A stretch of 64,000 bases of DNA from an uncultured Gemmataceae bacterium (lineage in GTDB: Bacteria; Planctomycetota; Planctomycetia; Gemmatales; Gemmataceae), in the NCBI GenBank assembly GCA_963750165.1, contig CAVVPN010000003.1, positions 2,368,001 through 2,432,000 on the forward strand. Reading direction: 5' to 3'. The first letter of the stretch is position 1; each line of letters opens with the position of its first letter. The position numbers were made by a program, and so were the translations under genes. Positions 26,267-60,885 of the stretch are shown in pieces. The notes below the pieces were generated by a model. That model worked only from the letters and a program-made list of their open reading frames with translations, did not search any database and was not told the origin of the DNA.

Positions 26267-26499
26267 ATCAGAAGCGCTGGAATGACAAGGGTTTAGAGAG
26301 GCATCTGCTGCAACAAAACTCTACCCGCTCGACTCGTACTGACTGGAGCGGTTCGCACGCGGATCGCGCCCGCGGTGGGACGGCGGGCACAGCTTGACCA
26401 GCAGGGGCCTGTACTGCCACAGCAAGGAGGCCAAGGGGGCCAAGGTTTGCACACGTCGAGAATCGGCGCCCTGGCCCCGTGCGGCTGGCACGGCGCGAC

Positions 26500-26703
26500 C
26501 ACCACATGCTGAATTCGTCATCCTCGGCGACGCGGCGCAGGAGTTCCGGGTCGGCCGGTCCAGCCCAGCAGGCCAGCCGTGCGATCCGCCCGGGTGGGTT
26601 CGGTTTGCACCTGGATCGTAACCCGTTGGTGTTCCTGGAGCGGCAACGGCTGGGCCGGCTTGAGCACGCCGTTTTCGTACACGGCTTCGACGGTGATGGC
26701 CAT
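26500..26703 (-). pseudogene. DUF104/AF2212-like antitoxin, frameshifted and truncated by a repeat
   Basis: MAITVEAVYENGVLKPAQPLPLQEHQRVTI; shifts frame to DPELLRRVAEDDEF, then runs into the dispersed repeat; no toxin partner. Confidence 0.65.
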
Positions 26704-37864: not shown

Positions 37865-38331
37865 CGTCGCGGAGCGCTCCCTGAGCTGGTTAGCGCGGTT
37901 CGCAGGCGGAGCGCGCACGGGTGGGGCGACGGGCACGGCTTGACCACCAGCGGCCTGCACTGCCACAGCAAGGGGGCCAAGGGGGCCAAGGGGGCCAGCT
38001 TTTTCATACGTCGAGAGTTGGCAACCTGGCTCCGTGGGGGTGGCACGGCGCGACAACCACCGGCGGCGGTTGCCACAGCAAGGACGCCAAGAACGCCAAC
38101 TTTTTCATACGTCGAGATGCGGCGCCTGAGAGCGCTGGCCTGCCGTTCGTGGTCCTTGCGACGGCAAACTGCTCCAGGGCCCACCCCGTTTTCCCCGCGC
38201 TGAAGGGGCACAACCGCGTTCGTGGTTGTGCCCCTTCAGCGCGGAACAGCAGCAGAGGTTGGGGCCCTGGCTCAGAGGGAAAAGGGGACGCGGACATTTA
38301 TCGGGGAGGAAATATGTCCGCGTCCCCTTTT
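37865..38331. repeat. Cluster of dispersed repeats and REP palindromes
   Basis: Two 9-mer/ACGTCGAG units, palindrome 38195-38244, AAAAGGGGACGCGGACAT...ATGTCCGCGTCCCCTTTT 38280-38331. Confidence 0.85.
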
Positions 38332-39410: not shown

Positions 39411-39500
39411 CCCGAACCAGGTGTTGCACGTGACGGGCAATCTAAGGTCAATCTGAAAACAATAAGTCGAGCGGCCCGCTCGTGAACTTTGTTGTTCGGC
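39411..39500 (+). other. attC site
   Basis: CCCGAAC...TGCACGTGACGGGC / GCCCGCTCGTGAAC...GTTCGGC imperfect hairpin. Confidence 0.85.
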
Positions 39501-39524
39501 GACAGGCTCAAACGGGGGCCGAAA

Positions 39525-40109
39525 ATGCGAGTGCTTTTGCTTTCCATGTTCGTTATAGCTCTGCTCGCCCAATCAAATGCCATCGGTGGCGATGCCCCCA
39601 TTCCGCCCAAATCCTACACACAGACGTCTGCCGATGGCAAGTATGTGTTCGTGATGCTCGCTCCTAAGAAGTTCCGCGGCACGAACGATCCACGTTATCC
39701 CAAGAGCGGCCTATACAAGAACGATGGATCCAAGGAGCCACTGTGGACGGTTGACTGGTATTGTCGCGATGTGCTTGTCTCAACCAACGGCGATCACGTC
39801 GTGAGGATTGAGCGTGACTTGTTTACCGAGGCAGCGCTTGATGATCCGTTACGGCAAGAAGATCTCAAGCGAGTCGTCGTGGCAACCTACTGGCGTGGCA
39901 AACCCCTAACAGAGCAGACTCTCGGCAGCCTGGTCGCTCGTCCGGAACTTATTCGCCGGAAGTCAGGACCTGGAGCCTCAAAGCGCGTGATCTGGCTAGT
40001 TGGCGAGTCAAAGCTGTTGGAAAAGGAGCGCCGCTTTGAAATACCGACAGGTGATGGTCGTGTCGTCGTCTTGGATCTTGGCACCGGAAAAATAATCAAG
40101 AGGAATTGA
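39525..40109 (+). CDS. Cassette 2: secreted hypothetical protein
   Basis: Signal peptide, SADGKYVFVM, YPKSGLY, PLWTVDWY. Confidence 0.8.
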   Translation: MRVLLLSMFVIALLAQSNAIGGDAPIPPKSYTQTSADGKYVFVMLAPKKFRGTNDPRYPKSGLYKNDGSKEPLWTVDWYCRDVLVSTNGDHVVRIERDLFTEAALDDPLRQEDLKRVVVATYWRGKPLTEQTLGSLVARPELIRRKSGPGASKRVIWLVGESKLLEKERRFEIPTGDGRVVVLDLGTGKIIKRN

Positions 40110-40256
40110 AATAGGCGACGACTACGTAGGCCGCCGGGAAAAATCAAAGGGGTCGGGAGTCGATTCCGGAAAACATCAGAGCCGAACCAGAGTGCTGCTG
40201 CGGACGGGCCATCTGAGTCTACTCGGACACCTTAAGTCGAGTGGCCCGCCGCAGAG

Positions 40257-40484
40257 TTCTCCATGAAACCAATTTCCCCCTGATCGATGAAAAGGAGGCG
40301 AGCTAGGATAGAGGGCGTCTGGGGACGTGCTGTGGTCGTGACTTAGCTGGTGCATCGTGCCCGACGCAGAGTTGGACCCGGACGCCGCGAGGCACCCTGA
40401 TTTGGGCGCAGCGCCCATATGCCCGTGTGGGAGACTCCACCACCGCCGGCGTCTGCATGCTCCCTGGGCGTCTGGAGAACTCCG
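40257..40484 (+). ncRNA. Putative bridge/seek RNA region
   Basis: Segments matching the target (40340-48, 40359-71) and the circle junction (40427-33, 40473-83). Confidence 0.6.
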
Positions 40485-41732
40485 ATGGACGCGCTGCTCC
40501 CTGTCGTGCTGACCATTTGCTGCGGCATTGATGTCCACAAGAAGACCCTGACCGCCTGCCTCTTGAAGTCGGGTGCCTCGGGCGATGCGCTCGTCGAGCG
40601 CCGGGTCTTTCGGACCATGACCAGCGCCTTGCAGGAGTTGGCGCAGTGGTTGGTGCAGGCGGACTGTCGGCACGTGGCCATCGAGAGCACCGGCGTGTAT
40701 TGGAAGCCGGTGTTCAACATCCTGGAGCAGGCCGGCATTGAGGTCGTCCTGGTCAACGCCCAGCACGTCAAGAACGTGCCCGGACGCAAGACCGATGTCA
40801 AGGATGCCGAGTGGCTCGCCACCCTGTTGCGTGTGGGCCTGTTGCGCAGTAGTTTCGTGCCCCCCAAGGAAATCCGGGAACTGCGGGACTTGACGCGCTA
40901 CCGCACGCAAGTGATCCGCCAGCGCGCCGACGAGAGCAACCGTATCCAGAAGTTGCTGGAGAACTGCAACATCAAGTTGGCCGGCGTGGCCAGCGACGTA
41001 CTGGGAGCCAGTGGCCGAGACATGTTACGCAGCCTGGCCGAGGGCGTGGACAGCCCCGCCGTACTGGCCAACCTGGCGCGGGGCCAGCTGCGTGCGAAGA
41101 TCCCGGAATTGGAGGAAGCGCTGCGCGGGGTGATGAGCGCGACGCAGCGCTGGTTGCTGCGGGAGCAATTACAGAAGGTGAGCGACCTGGACGACGCCAT
41201 CGTCCGCTTGGATGCGAAGATCGCCGAGGTGTGCCTCCCGTTCGCGCAGGCGCTCGCGCTGTTGGACCAGATTCCCGGGGTGAACCAGCGGACGGCGCAG
41301 GTGATCGTGGCGGAGGTCGGCCTGGACATGAGCCGCTTTCAATCGGAGGGGCAGTTGGCGTCGTGGGCGGGGATGTGTCCAGGCAACCACGAGAGCGCTG
41401 GCAAGCAGAAGAGCGGCAAGACGCGCAAGGGCAACCGCTGGCTGCGGCAGGCGCTGGTGGAGGCGGCGCGGGGAGCGGCGAACACCAAGGAGAGCAGTCT
41501 GCGGGCGACGTACCATCGGATCAAGGCACGCCGCGGGGACAAGCGGGCCTGCCTGGCGGTGGGGCACCGGATCTTGCGGATGGCCTACACACTACTGAGC
41601 AAGCGCCGGCCGTACCAGGAAGAGGGGCCGGACTATTACCGGACGGCAGACAAGGACCGGCTGAAGGAGAGGCTGGTGCGGCGGCTGCAGAGAATGGGCT
41701 ATGAGGTGACCGTGGCGGAACCGGCGGCCTGA
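40485..41732 (+). CDS. IS110 DEDD recombinase
   Basis: GIDVHKK, IESTGVYW, KTDVKDA, IPGVN, SWAGMCPGNHESAGK, GNRWLR. Confidence 0.95.
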   Translation: MDALLPVVLTICCGIDVHKKTLTACLLKSGASGDALVERRVFRTMTSALQELAQWLVQADCRHVAIESTGVYWKPVFNILEQAGIEVVLVNAQHVKNVPGRKTDVKDAEWLATLLRVGLLRSSFVPPKEIRELRDLTRYRTQVIRQRADESNRIQKLLENCNIKLAGVASDVLGASGRDMLRSLAEGVDSPAVLANLARGQLRAKIPELEEALRGVMSATQRWLLREQLQKVSDLDDAIVRLDAKIAEVCLPFAQALALLDQIPGVNQRTAQVIVAEVGLDMSRFQSEGQLASWAGMCPGNHESAGKQKSGKTRKGNRWLRQALVEAARGAANTKESSLRATYHRIKARRGDKRACLAVGHRILRMAYTLLSKRRPYQEEGPDYYRTADKDRLKERLVRRLQRMGYEVTVAEPAA

Positions 41733-41857
41733 GCAGGACCACCCACGACGGTCCCCTCGGTGGACACAGTCCCAGAAATACATTTTCGTGGGAGCTATGT
41801 CGTTCGGCGGCGGAGAGGCGGCTGTAGATTTACTATCTTGCAGACAGAGAGGATCTC

Positions 41858-42418
41858 ATGAAAGCGACAAGTGCAACCGCTACGGCATCCCTACTGCTAA
41901 TCGCCGCGCTACTGGCCGCGCGGTCTGGGGCGGCCCAGCCGCCAAAGGCGGACCAGCCCCCGGCCGGCGCGAAGACCCTTTCGGCGGACGACGACAAGGC
42001 CATCCGGCAGGTGATTCGCGGGATCGAGCAGGCGTGGAACGCCCACGACATGGACGCCTACGCCCGGCTGCTCCGGCCAGACGTCGAGTGGGTCAACGTC
42101 GTGGGCATGCACTGGCGCGGCCGGGACGACGTGATGCTCGCCCACAGAGCATTCCACAAAACGACCTTCAAGAACCACCACATCAAGACCGACGACATCC
42201 ACCTCCGCCCGCTCTGTCCCGGCTACGCGATCGCCGTGGTGACGACCACGAACGACGCGTTCACCGCGCCGGACGGTCGCGTCATCGACAAGAGGCAAGA
42301 TCGGCAGACCTACGTGTTGAGCAAAGAGGCCGACGGGTGGAAGATCGCCCACTGTGAGAACGTGTGGGTAGACGCCGAGGCGGCGAAGCACGACCCGGTG
42401 AAAAGCAAGAAGAAGTAG
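41858..42418 (+). CDS. Cassette 3: secreted NTF2/SnoaL-like (SgcJ/DUF4440) protein
   Basis: AWNAHDMDAYA, WVNVVG..WRGR, WKIAH. Confidence 0.85.
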   Translation: MKATSATATASLLLIAALLAARSGAAQPPKADQPPAGAKTLSADDDKAIRQVIRGIEQAWNAHDMDAYARLLRPDVEWVNVVGMHWRGRDDVMLAHRAFHKTTFKNHHIKTDDIHLRPLCPGYAIAVVTTTNDAFTAPDGRVIDKRQDRQTYVLSKEADGWKIAHCENVWVDAEAAKHDPVKSKKK

Positions 42419-42589
42419 CGGCGTGCGGTCGCTCCGCCGAACCAGGCGCTGCACCTGACTTGCCTTCAGATTACAGGCATTTTACGCAGTCGCCGGGACA
42501 AAGTGAAGGACAAAGGCCGTGAATTGTCCCGCCAAGATTGTCCCGAAGGCCACGGCAGGCGGGGTGGCGGTCGAGCCTGGGTATCAGAA

Positions 42590-47600: not shown

Positions 47601-48793
47601 AATGGGGGCAAGCCAGCTGCTCTCGGTCGAGGATTTCAAGGAAGCGGCGGTAGTGCTGGACCGTGATCTCGGTCAGCCGGATGTGGCCGGTCGCCTCAAG
47701 GAACAAGTCCATCGCCCGCTTGATGTCGTACCACTGTTTGTTGTCCTTCTTCTTGTAGCTGTCGATGTACGCCTTCGCCTCCACCGTGAGGCTCACGTCC
47801 TTCGGGATGGCCCTGCTCTCAGCAAGGTCGTTCAGCACGCTCGCCGTGATGATGCCCTCGCCCCCGTCGAGGGCCACCAGAGCCGCCGCCTGTCGCATAT
47901 CGGGGTGGACGGCAGGACCGTCCACATGGTCGATGTCCCAATCTGGCACGGTTCGGGCATCGGCGAGTTCTTCTTCAAGCTGGGCCGTGTCCCGGCCCTG
48001 CTCCTTGAACTCCGTGATGAACCCCTCAAGGCTGGCGATGCGGGTCGGGATCGGGGTCGGGCCGAGTAATTCGGCGGCTTTCTCGGCCCGCTTGAGCTTC
48101 AGGTACTTGAGCCAGTACGGGCGGCTCCCCTTCTCGCTGTTGGGGACCGCTTCCTTGAACGACTCCTGAAGTTGCTGGGTGGTGGCCGACACCTTGAGTT
48201 CCTTCGTTCGGAGCTTCCACTGCTTCTTGTCGTGGTCGAATGTTCCGTTGCCGTGAACCGCCATCTCGTCCATTGCCTTACCCCCTGCAACCCGCTATTC
48301 CTTGTATTGTCCCGAACTTTGCCCCTCCGGTCAATCGTCCCGAAGAGGTTTAGGACGTTACTTCTGATCTGGCAATCGGTTGCACTGCGTCAGGCGGGTG
48401 CGTTGGGGGCAAAACGGTCTGTCGCTGCACCTGACCGGGGCCGCCATACTGGTTCTCCGAGGCGCCAAGGTTTTGCAGGCGGCCCCGGCAGGTGAGGTTG
48501 GTTGTTCGGCTTGGCTGGCGTCATAAATGGTGTAGCACCATAGGTTTAAGCGATTCGGAGCCGCGTGGCTTAAGACGCGCGTCTCGTCGGAACCGCGAAC
48601 CGCCTTGGCCCACCAGGCGTGGCGTGCAGTCCAGGAGCGGCGGGAAGCCTCCGATCCGTTGCTACGGCGAGGCCATGCGTTCCCGCTCGCTGCGGTGGGG
48701 TCTGGTTCCCTGGTTGCCACCAGCCCACGCGATCTATCCCGAGGCAACCGGCCGGCACTTGGAACGCAGAGTTCAGCGCAACTGGTCCGCCCA

Positions 48794-48888
48794 GCCGAAC
48801 CCGCCGTTGCACGAAACCGGGCGCGCCTCCCGGTCCCTCTGACGGTGAGTCGGCCCAGCGCGCCCGGTTCGTGAACTCTGCGTTCGGC
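48794..48888 (+). other. attC site
   Basis: GCCGAAC..TGCACGAAACCGGGCGCGC / GCGCGCCCGGTTCGTGAAC..GTTCGGC. Confidence 0.88.
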
Positions 48889-49319: not shown

Positions 49320-49418
49320 GCCGAACCAACGGATGAAGCTGACCGGGGCCGCCATCCTGGTTTCGCGCGGCATGAAGGTCTTGCAGGCGGCCCCGGCAGC
49401 TTATCCTTATCGTTCGGC
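49320..49418 (+). other. attC site
   Basis: GCCGAAC..AAGCTGACCGGGGCCGCC / GGCGGCCCCGGCAGCTTAT..GTTCGGC. Confidence 0.9.
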
Positions 49419-50019: not shown

Positions 50020-50116
50020 GCCGAACCAGCCGTTGCAGCAGACAGGGCGGGCAGCACGGCTTTCCGAGGTTCAACGTCTTTCCAGCCCGCCCTGCTGCTG
50101 AACTGGGTCGTTCGGC
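50020..50116 (+). other. attC site
   Basis: GCCGAAC..TGCAGCAGACAGGGCGGGC / GCCCGCCCTGCTGCTGAAC..GTTCGGC. Confidence 0.9.
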
Positions 50117-60607: not shown

Positions 60608-60885
60608 CGATTGCGGATTTTGGATTGCGGATTGCGGATTCGTTGTGGCACGGTCTGCGGATTCGTTGTGGCAGGGTCTCCTGACCGTGCCACGGATCCT
60701 GACCGAAGGTCTCCTCCGGGTAGAAGCAGGGAGACCTTCGGTCGCAGAGAGTGGCTTGGTCCGGAGACCAAGCCACAACAGAGGGTCGCAGAGAGTGGCT
60801 TGGTCCGGAGACCAGGCCACAACAGCCACAACAGAGACCTTCGGTCGGACCGAGTGGCCTGGTCCGGAGACCAGGCCACAACAGA
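60608..60885. repeat. REP cluster within the atp operon
   Basis: GATTGCG heptamers and three GTGGCYTGGTCCGGAGACCARGCCACAACA palindromes. Confidence 0.85.

Follow-up and report, generated by a model that had tools for sequence, protein, structure and literature searches.

We report that a 64,000-nt stretch of DNA from an uncultured Gemmataceae bacterium (the window) carries an insertion sequence of the IS110 family at positions 40257-41794 of the forward strand (1538 bp counting the right-hand AG). This is very likely an active element whose 228-nt leader encodes a bridge RNA with two loops, and the sequence of that leader suggests that the RNA aims the element at integron attC sites. An initial annotation, made from the window alone, had proposed an attC-targeting IS110 element with target and donor guides readable upstream of its recombinase gene. 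Our results support the attC target, the upstream leader and three of the four guides, one of them only in part, whereas the fourth guide and an opposite strand order of target and donor guides did not withstand comparison with relatives. The strings quoted in that annotation were all found where it had placed them.

The source genome (9.6 Mb in 12 contigs) contains three copies of the element, at 99-100% identity over a 1539-base query. One is the window copy, on contig C3, and the two others lie 6.5 kb apart on contig C4. We took the element boundaries from the comparison of the three flanks. The core dinucleotide AG is present at both junctions (40255-56 and 41793-94), with no further target duplication. 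The left flank of every copy ends in ...GTGGCCCGCCGCAGAG, and the right flanks read CTATGTC, CTGAGTC and CTGGGTC, each followed by GTTCGG and then by DNA that differs. The left arms also differ at several positions. Because of these differences in left arms and right flanks, we consider the three copies to be separate insertions into related sites. The element has been active recently. Of note, the third copy (C4:1186327-1187864) is 1 bp shorter and its recombinase match is split by a frameshift into residues 1-198 and 187-415; this copy is probably dead.

All three copies sit at the same spot of an attC, 7 nt 5' of the R' box, as the initial annotation had expected of the other genomic copies. 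Without the element, the window site would read GCCGAAC...GGCCCGCCGCAG-AG-CTATGTC-GTTCGGC, which folds into an imperfect hairpin with an extrahelical A. The consensus of attC boxes is RYYYAAC/GTTRRRY, and the boxes of the window deviate from it at position 4. Three intact sites of the same kind are found in the window (48794-48888, 49320-49418 and 50020-50116). These attC-like sites span 95-99 bp, from GCCGAAC to GTTCGGC, and are preceded by small open reading frames (ORFs) on the forward strand, in the layout of ORF plus site; one small ORF of this cassette array encodes DUF4440/SnoaL domains. An integron integrase is not found in the window itself. One is encoded at C4:1198898-1199845 (TIGR02249, 426 bits against a cut-off of 265), 11-19 kb from the two C4 copies. 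On these sequence features, we identify the interrupted and sister sites as integron attC sites. A second match to the integrase model, at C4:1190279-1190728, covers only model positions 1-148 with 175 bits, below the cut-off; at a distance of 8.6 kb from the complete intI, it resembles an integrase that is truncated or duplicated.

Empty sites were found as well. The uninterrupted target GGCCCGCCGCAGAGCTATGTCGTTCGGC occurs exactly at two unoccupied attC sites, C4:1159011 and C4:1154333, which read ...CGCAGAGCTATGTC... and in which the left target runs on into CTATGTC-GTTCGGC. A search within the window, allowing up to 3 mismatches, returned 0 matches, these empty sites being on another contig. 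Genome-wide, the string CGCAGAGCTnnGTC occurs at six sites, of which three are occupied (all attC) and three are free (two attC, one not), so that 5/6 are attC. Since the target string is almost confined to one attC subtype of this genome, where it lies in the spacer that separates L' arm and R' box, the element appears to home to attC. Its insertion splits the attC hairpin and leaves GTT 7 nt downstream. We also considered that the element has no aim of its own and that its copies spread inside cassettes duplicated or moved by the integrase. There are indeed only three copies, all in cassette arrays. However, their left arms differ, their right flanks are unlike and lead into different downstream DNA, and the left target guide of the leader fits the site. 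Moreover, a relative with 89% protein identity (locus L165) has a changed left target guide and sits in another attC subtype. Passive spread is therefore highly improbable.

The only gene of the element encodes a recombinase with the domains DEDD_Tnp_IS110 (PF01548, 4e-37) and Transposase_20 (PF02371, 6.5e-23). The protein scores 285 bits against NF033542, the NCBIfam model "IS110 family RNA-guided transposase" (cut-off 140). With both marks of the family, its sequence identifies the element as encoding an IS110-family RNA-guided recombinase in the broad sense. Together with non-coding stretches of 228 nt at the left end (LE) and 62 nt at the right end (RE), these matches agree with the earlier description of an IS110 element with its leader upstream. 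Similarity to solved structures is remote (IS621 chain 8wt6_A, E 2.3e-15; ISCro4, E 2.7e-11). We preferred the start codon at 40485 to the ATG at 40419, because the alignments with homologues start at residues 1-5 of the shorter product and a GGAG lies at 40474-77. Recombinases of the IS1111 group have 330-350 aa and those of the subgroup with IS110 itself 395-455 aa; with 415 aa and an upstream RNA, the present element fits the latter. The plasmid matches obtained by tblastn carry only the generic name "IS110 family transposase".

One sequence by itself does not show which parts of the leader are guides, and for this reason we compared relatives. A genome scan yielded 555 relatives, from which 80 loci were kept. 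A leader of 260 nt was available for 66 of these loci and the window, and these 67 leaders were aligned; the remaining 14 loci were dropped, as their match began after residue 20 or they had too little upstream DNA. The left end could not be placed in five of the aligned leaders, nor the right end in three more, and 54 non-identical loci were used. The alignment (A1) has 327 columns, and pairs were counted on 52 leaders, omitting L038 and L069 as near-duplicates. We tested a further, independent set by an anchor-free method; it consisted of 26 metagenome loci, of which 23 have a right flank. Relatives with about 50% identity occur widely in Actinomycetota, Chloroflexota and Acidobacteriota, and the upstream RNA is the same in all of them. 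A search for closer relatives gave matches in 12/267 genomes of the same order and in 1/401 genomes of a phylum sample, namely the source genome itself. The metagenome scan returned mostly relatives with about 50% identity, those with 76-84% being seen at the protein level, and four soil sequencing runs gave short pieces of the conserved domain only, with no useful junctions.

In the 54-locus alignment, constant scaffold blocks alternate with short variable segments. We found that the scaffold forms two internal loops of the same build (Table 1). The first, the putative target-binding loop, would be closed by helix A and hold the inner hairpin B; the second, the putative donor-binding loop, would be closed by helix C and hold the inner hairpin E. 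Helix A (RNAalifold columns 115-118/165-168) is paired in 95.7% of alignment cells, and each of its 4/4 pairs is changed on both sides. Compensatory changes were also found in helices B and E, although the hairpin E of the window itself differs in detail from the family helix. Helix C emerged from per-sequence complementarity, with a longest run of 7.85 nt versus 6.07 nt (standard deviation, sd, 0.16) for permuted partners, a value reached in 0/300 permutations. A local hairpin D (columns 171-178/186-192) was tried for the same region and rejected: it is weak, with 73% of cells paired, and the long-range helix C was preferred. RNAalifold applied to the whole alignment recovered only 9 pairs, and sub-alignments were needed. 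The inner hairpins end in CCCG in the target loop and CACG in the donor loop, and are followed on the 3' strands by the left target and the left donor guide, respectively. The 5' strand of the target loop carries the right target guide, which precedes the left target guide family-wide. Altogether, three guides covary with their DNA partners and four helices covary within the leader, which is the outcome that the initial annotation had asked of such a comparison.

In the window alone, a 12/13 match of the leader to the left target was reached in 3/5000 dinucleotide shuffles. Across the genome loci, the segment that follows the constant CCCG equals the left flank of each locus: identity at flank positions -1 to -5 was 53/54, 49/54, 48/54, 44/54 and 36/43, where about 14 would be expected. 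The metagenome loci gave the same result (4.85 versus 2.22 of 7; 0/5000 permutations). In L165, this slot reads AGGTGAG instead of the CGCAGAG of the window, and the element abuts ...GCCGCCCCGGCAGGTGAG (...CCCCGGCAGGTGAG), the arm of another attC subtype, which occurs in the window as well (48426-48510). The guide originally drawn at 40359-71 must be shortened, since GCCCG (40359-63) is family-constant scaffold that includes CCCG; 5 of the 12 matches are thus not guide, and what stands is CGCAGAG at 40365-71. The TT that follows (40372-73) equals LE +1 and +2. This handshake helped to set the boundaries and is not counted as evidence.

The right target guide is supported at the position first assigned to it, 40340-48. 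An 8/10 match was reached in 281/5000 shuffles of the window leader. At the corresponding column, a 7-mer that differs by no more than 1 base from the reverse complement of core plus right target is present in 17/54 loci, and 19/54 match at 5 or more of 7 positions, where 2.5 loci would be expected. The mean was 3.81 versus 2.65 (sd 0.13) of 7, reached in 0/2000 permutations, and the 23 metagenome loci with a right flank gave 6.22 versus 5.14 of 9 (0/5000). In one relative (L173), 11 nt of the guide fit the right flank (GGATCGGATCT versus AG-ATCCGATCC). The target guides are thus readable in the leader, and the metagenome set repeats both target results. Of note, the distant members L006/L093, L007, L173 and L178 (70-76% identity) are not in attC-like DNA. 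In six loci (L010, L015, L033, L043, L064 and L078), the left flank resembles a right end (ATTTTC-N5-core), the one of L043 being identical to the RE end of that element. Such flanks point to tandem copies, to circle junctions present in the assembly, or to insertion beside the end of a relative. In the left-flank statistics, these six loci lower the signal and do not raise it.

The left donor guide proposed for the window, GTGGGAG, has a counterpart at the same position in 54/54 loci, each matching the RE end of its own locus, which follows ATTTTC. In the window leader alone, this 7/7 match was reached in 223/5000 shuffles. The 54/54 figure is partly circular, because the RE was located with that same guide. 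However, five genomes have pairs of copies, and these define the same ends independently (L008/L009, L016/L017, L021/L022, L029/L030/L038 and L065/L073). The sequences of the relatives indicate that the left target, right target and left donor guides covary with their DNA partners.

The initial annotation had also read TGGAGAACTCC as the right donor guide, in a model in which the donor guides follow the order left then right and the target guides the order right then left. This string matches the reverse complement of the circle junction at 11/11 positions, which was reached in 0/5000 shuffles. Nevertheless, the match occurs in the window only among the 54 loci and is absent from L165, whose LE start is different. 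Moreover, the string is found beyond the two loops, 19 nt 3' of helix C, and shares bases with the ribosome-binding site. Since the junction GGAG-TT-CTCC comes close to being self-complementary, part of the match follows from the mere presence of a GGAG ribosome-binding site. We therefore rejected this guide, and the full model in which it takes part deserves little credence. The opposite order of target and donor guides falls as well, because both bottom-strand guides, the left target and the left donor guide, occupy the equivalent 3' strands of homologous loops.

The same match could instead serve to control translation. In transcripts that enter from an upstream cassette and cross the LE end, GAGUUCUCCA would pair with the ribosome-binding region and block translation of the recombinase. 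The minimum-free-energy fold pairs leader nt 1-6 with the GGAGAA beside the start codon, the match is far beyond chance in this single sequence, and the element lies within a co-oriented cassette array. However, the pairing is not conserved in L165, L006, L007, L093, L173 or L178, which makes such a control unlikely, if less so than the role of a donor guide.

By analogy with the target loop, one would expect the right donor guide at 40390-40401, where the donor loop has its 5' strand. Tested for a complement, this strand gave a weak signal in the genome set (5.25 versus 4.93, reached in 2/5000 permutations) and none in the metagenome set. The complement of the core plus LE start formed no cluster in the 54 leaders or in the whole elements, the sole hit at the place of TGGAGAACTCC being that of the window, and no complementary partner of the strand was found in the RE or in the upstream or downstream leader. 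On the other hand, the variable bases of this strand are identical, not complementary, to LE +24 to +28, which follow CACC after the LE hairpin (A1 columns 32-35 versus 192-195 show the excess of identity). An exact match of at least 4 nt is present in 25/54 loci, with 9.3 expected, and the observed mean was reached by 0/2000 permutations. The longest common substring averaged 5.79 versus 4.73 nt in the genome set and 6.42 versus 5.33 nt in the metagenome set (0/5000 each), and the reverse-complement controls were flat. As examples, L173 has CTCACC at both positions, and L151 has ACCACTG in both, as against ACCACCG in both for five relatives. Of the seven closest relatives, just two show exact identity. 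It is conceivable, though on balance we doubt it, that throughout the clade the right donor side is read by the donor-loop 5' strand (GCACC plus 4-6 nt) and not by a guide complementary to the LE start. The strand has the same sequence as about +17 to +29 of the LE top strand, past the conserved LE hairpin; its pairing partner would then be the bottom strand, at a place deep within the element. The clade that shows this coupling is probably the subgroup around IS110 itself, with recombinases of 395-455 aa.

The ends of the element follow a family pattern. In the 67 aligned leaders, the core is followed by 5-6 variable nt and then by CATG (LE +6 to +9), and the conserved motif of the RE is ATTTTC (-13 to -8). 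The LE box at 40286-40294 is nearly invariant in 52 aligned leaders. This box, with the consensus GATGAAAAT, and the RE motif ATTTTC(A) (41782-41787) are placed asymmetrically, the former at about +30 relative to the left end and the latter at about -13 relative to the right end. The pair could represent protein-binding sites or a promoter element. The reverse complement of the family's RE-LE junction resembles CATGN(4-6)*CNCCTT, the published target consensus of IS900.

Several observations weigh against a bridge RNA in this leader. The leader of the window, folded singly, is no more stable than its shuffles (z -0.18; 85/200 as good), an Rfam scan of 39500-42500 with E up to 1 gave no match, and a scan of 40100-41900 for sigma-70-like promoters found 0. 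A right donor guide of the canonical type was not found in the 54 genome loci or the metagenome loci, and 35/54 loci match their right flank at fewer than 5 of 7 positions. In addition, the permutation tests take no account of kinship between loci, and the boundaries of the RE were placed with the left donor guide and those of the LE partly with core and handshake, so that both items are circular. We nonetheless consider the two-loop bridge RNA to be the best explanation. The RNA of the 5' leader would guide the 415-aa DEDD recombinase, the 3' strand of its donor loop carrying the left donor guide that matches the RE end. The RNA would presumably be made and be bound by the recombinase, and recombination would pass through a circular form as in IS621.

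Table 1. Features of the element, its leader and its insertion site, in window coordinates.
Feature	Position	Strand	Remarks
attC R'' box GCCGAAC of the interrupted site	40181-40187	+	reverse complement of GTTCGGC (41802-08)
Left target: attC L' arm GGCCCGCCGCAG plus core AG (40255-56)	40243-40256	+	left flank alike in the three copies
Left end (LE)	40257-40265	+	variable right-donor bases TTCTC(C), then family-conserved CATG
LE hairpin H0 (GAAA/TTTC)	40265-40276	+	compensatory changes in 4/4 pairs; 70.7% of cells paired
CTGAT in LE	40280-40284	+	identical to donor-loop 5' strand
Conserved LE box GATGAAAAG (family consensus GATGAAAAT)	40286-40294	+	inverted repeat of RE motif ATTTTC
Helix A, 5' strand GGTC	40334-40337	+	closes putative target-binding loop with 40375-78
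Right target guide GACTTAGCT	40340-40348	+	pairs with top strand AG-CTnnGTC; just 5' of constant (U)GGUGC
Inner hairpin B of target loop (UGGUGC...GUGCCCG)	40348-40363	+	98.5% of cells paired
Left target guide CGCAGAG (with core AG) plus handshake TT	40365-40373	+	guide 40365-71
Helix A, 3' strand GACC	40375-40378	+	pairs with 40334-37
Helix C, 5' strand	40379-40387	+	closes putative donor-binding loop with 40446-54
Donor-loop 5' strand AGGCACC plus CTGAT	40390-40401	+	constant GCACC, then 4-6 variable nt
Inner hairpin E of donor loop	40403-40425	+	family helix UGUUGC/GAGCACG, 97.7% of cells paired
Left donor guide GTGGGAG	40427-40433	+	last 7 nt of RE; after constant GCACG
Helix C, 3' strand	40446-40454	+	pairs with 40379-87
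Proposed right donor guide TGGAGAACTCC	40473-40483	+	overlaps ribosome-binding site GGAG (40474-77); not accepted
Recombinase gene, 415 aa	40485-41732	+	only gene in the element
Right end (RE)	41782-41794	+	ATTTTC plus left donor GTGGG plus core AG; family pattern ATTTTC-N5-core
Right target CTATGTC plus attC R' box GTTCGGC	41795-41808	+	from flank comparison and empty sites

The plan of this leader shares several traits with that of IS621 (Durrant et al. 2024, PMC11208160; Hiraizumi et al. 2026, PMC13626964). In both, the RNA lies upstream of the recombinase gene, with one internal loop each for target and donor; the left guides are complementary to the bottom strand, the right target guide to the top strand. 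A 2-nt handshake after a guide is also common to both. Unlike in IS621, the bottom-strand (left) guides stand here on the 3' side of the loops, the core is AG instead of CT, and a right donor guide of the canonical type was not found. The recombinase is longer as well (415 aa versus the 328-residue IS621 chain, E 2.3e-15), and attC insertion is not reported for IS621 in PMC11208160 and PMC13626964. ISEc21 also has its seekRNA upstream of the transposase gene, with matches to both target strands (Siddiquee et al. 2024, PMC11187229). The long non-coding region with a guide RNA upstream of the gene, typical of the IS621/ISEc21 group, is present here, but the order of the guides is not that of the group: the top-strand guide (40340-48) comes before the bottom-strand guide (40365-71), whereas in ISEc21 it comes after. 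ISPpu10 (bioRxiv 10.64898/2026.03.19.712850) likewise has its left target in the 3' arm of a DNA stem-loop, a repetitive extragenic palindromic (REP) sequence there and an attC here, and follows the IS621 wiring, unlike the present element. By analogy, the stem-loop location of the left target may add a structural check.

On the other hand, the attC-targeting members of the IS1111 group (ISKpn4, ISPst6, ISPa25 and ISPa21; PMC11187229, PMC13604230) resemble the present element in having a target a few nt 5' of the GTT of the R' box and in the order of the RNA matches, top strand before bottom strand. This is the order of IS1111 seekRNAs, ISEc21 having the reverse (Siddiquee et al. 2024, PMC11187229). 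In the literature searched, attC-targeting members belong to the IS1111 group only, with downstream RNA and 330-350-aa transposases, which agrees with what the initial annotation had stated of them. Could the present element be one of these, whose guide RNA gene moved to the 5' end? The guide order and the attC target would fit, the insertion lying 7 nt 5' of GTT as compared to 6 nt for ISKpn4 (target CGGCTTGAA*CGAATTGTTAG; PMC11187229). However, the recombinase of 415 aa is, judged by length, outside the IS1111 range and within that of the IS110 subgroup, and the non-coding stretch downstream of the gene is just 62 nt. Moreover, the long subterminal inverted repeats of the IS1111 group (7-17 bp near both ends) are lacking at the family level, the sole partner of ATTTTC being the box at LE +30 to +38. 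Finally, the upstream RNA is shared by the relatives with about 50% identity in Actinomycetota, Chloroflexota and Acidobacteriota. A relocated IS1111 RNA is therefore very unlikely. In its wiring, the clade combines the guide order of IS1111 with an upstream RNA, the right target guide preceding the left target guide in the LE. The literature searched contains no attC-targeting element with an upstream guide RNA and no upstream bridge RNA with the top-strand guide first; the guide order of this clade may already be shown in Durrant et al., for ISAar29 or ISHne5.

Other observations concern the family and the repeats of this genome. A second family member (C3:527030-528620; 53% protein identity) has the same RNA plan and is not in attC. 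Its left target guide CAGAGCCG has a core mismatch to the flank CAGAGCAG, and it may be decaying. About 30 nt past its RE there is a palindrome (GGACGGCTCTCCAGAGCCGTC...; C3:528550-528750) related to a dispersed palindromic repeat of 65-87 bp with attC-like end boxes (GCCGAAC...AGAGCCGTCCTAC...GTTGTTGTTCGGC; for instance, C3:438971-439057). Around 40 single copies of this repeat are distributed over six contigs, and it may be a REP-like element, or one like a miniature inverted-repeat transposable element, related to attC. In the window, three tandem copies of a 52-nt unit with a GC-rich hairpin (GAGTGGCTTGGTCCGGAGACCAAGCCAC) are found at 60731-60885, 44-59 bp apart. Repeats of 72-83 nt with 83-90% identity and CAAGGGGGCCAAGG motifs occur at 26374-26505 and 37920-38101, 11.5 kb apart, the latter bordering the cassette region on its left.

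Bridge and seek RNAs are under development as programmable recombinases, and two wiring plans have been described, that of IS621/ISEc21 and that of IS1111. The clade studied here offers a testable third design, with an IS1111-like order of guides in an upstream RNA, no clear right donor guide and a loop strand coupled to an internal segment of the LE. If the donor-loop strand does read the right donor side, the geometry of donor recognition would be unlike that of IS621 and, together with the swapped guide order, would amount to a third wiring plan for bridge RNAs. In addition, a branch of the family other than the IS1111 group has chosen attC as its landing pad, so that this choice was made twice and at nearly the same sub-site, 7 nt from GTT here and 6 nt in ISKpn4. 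This second choice bears on how insertion sequences immobilise integron cassettes.

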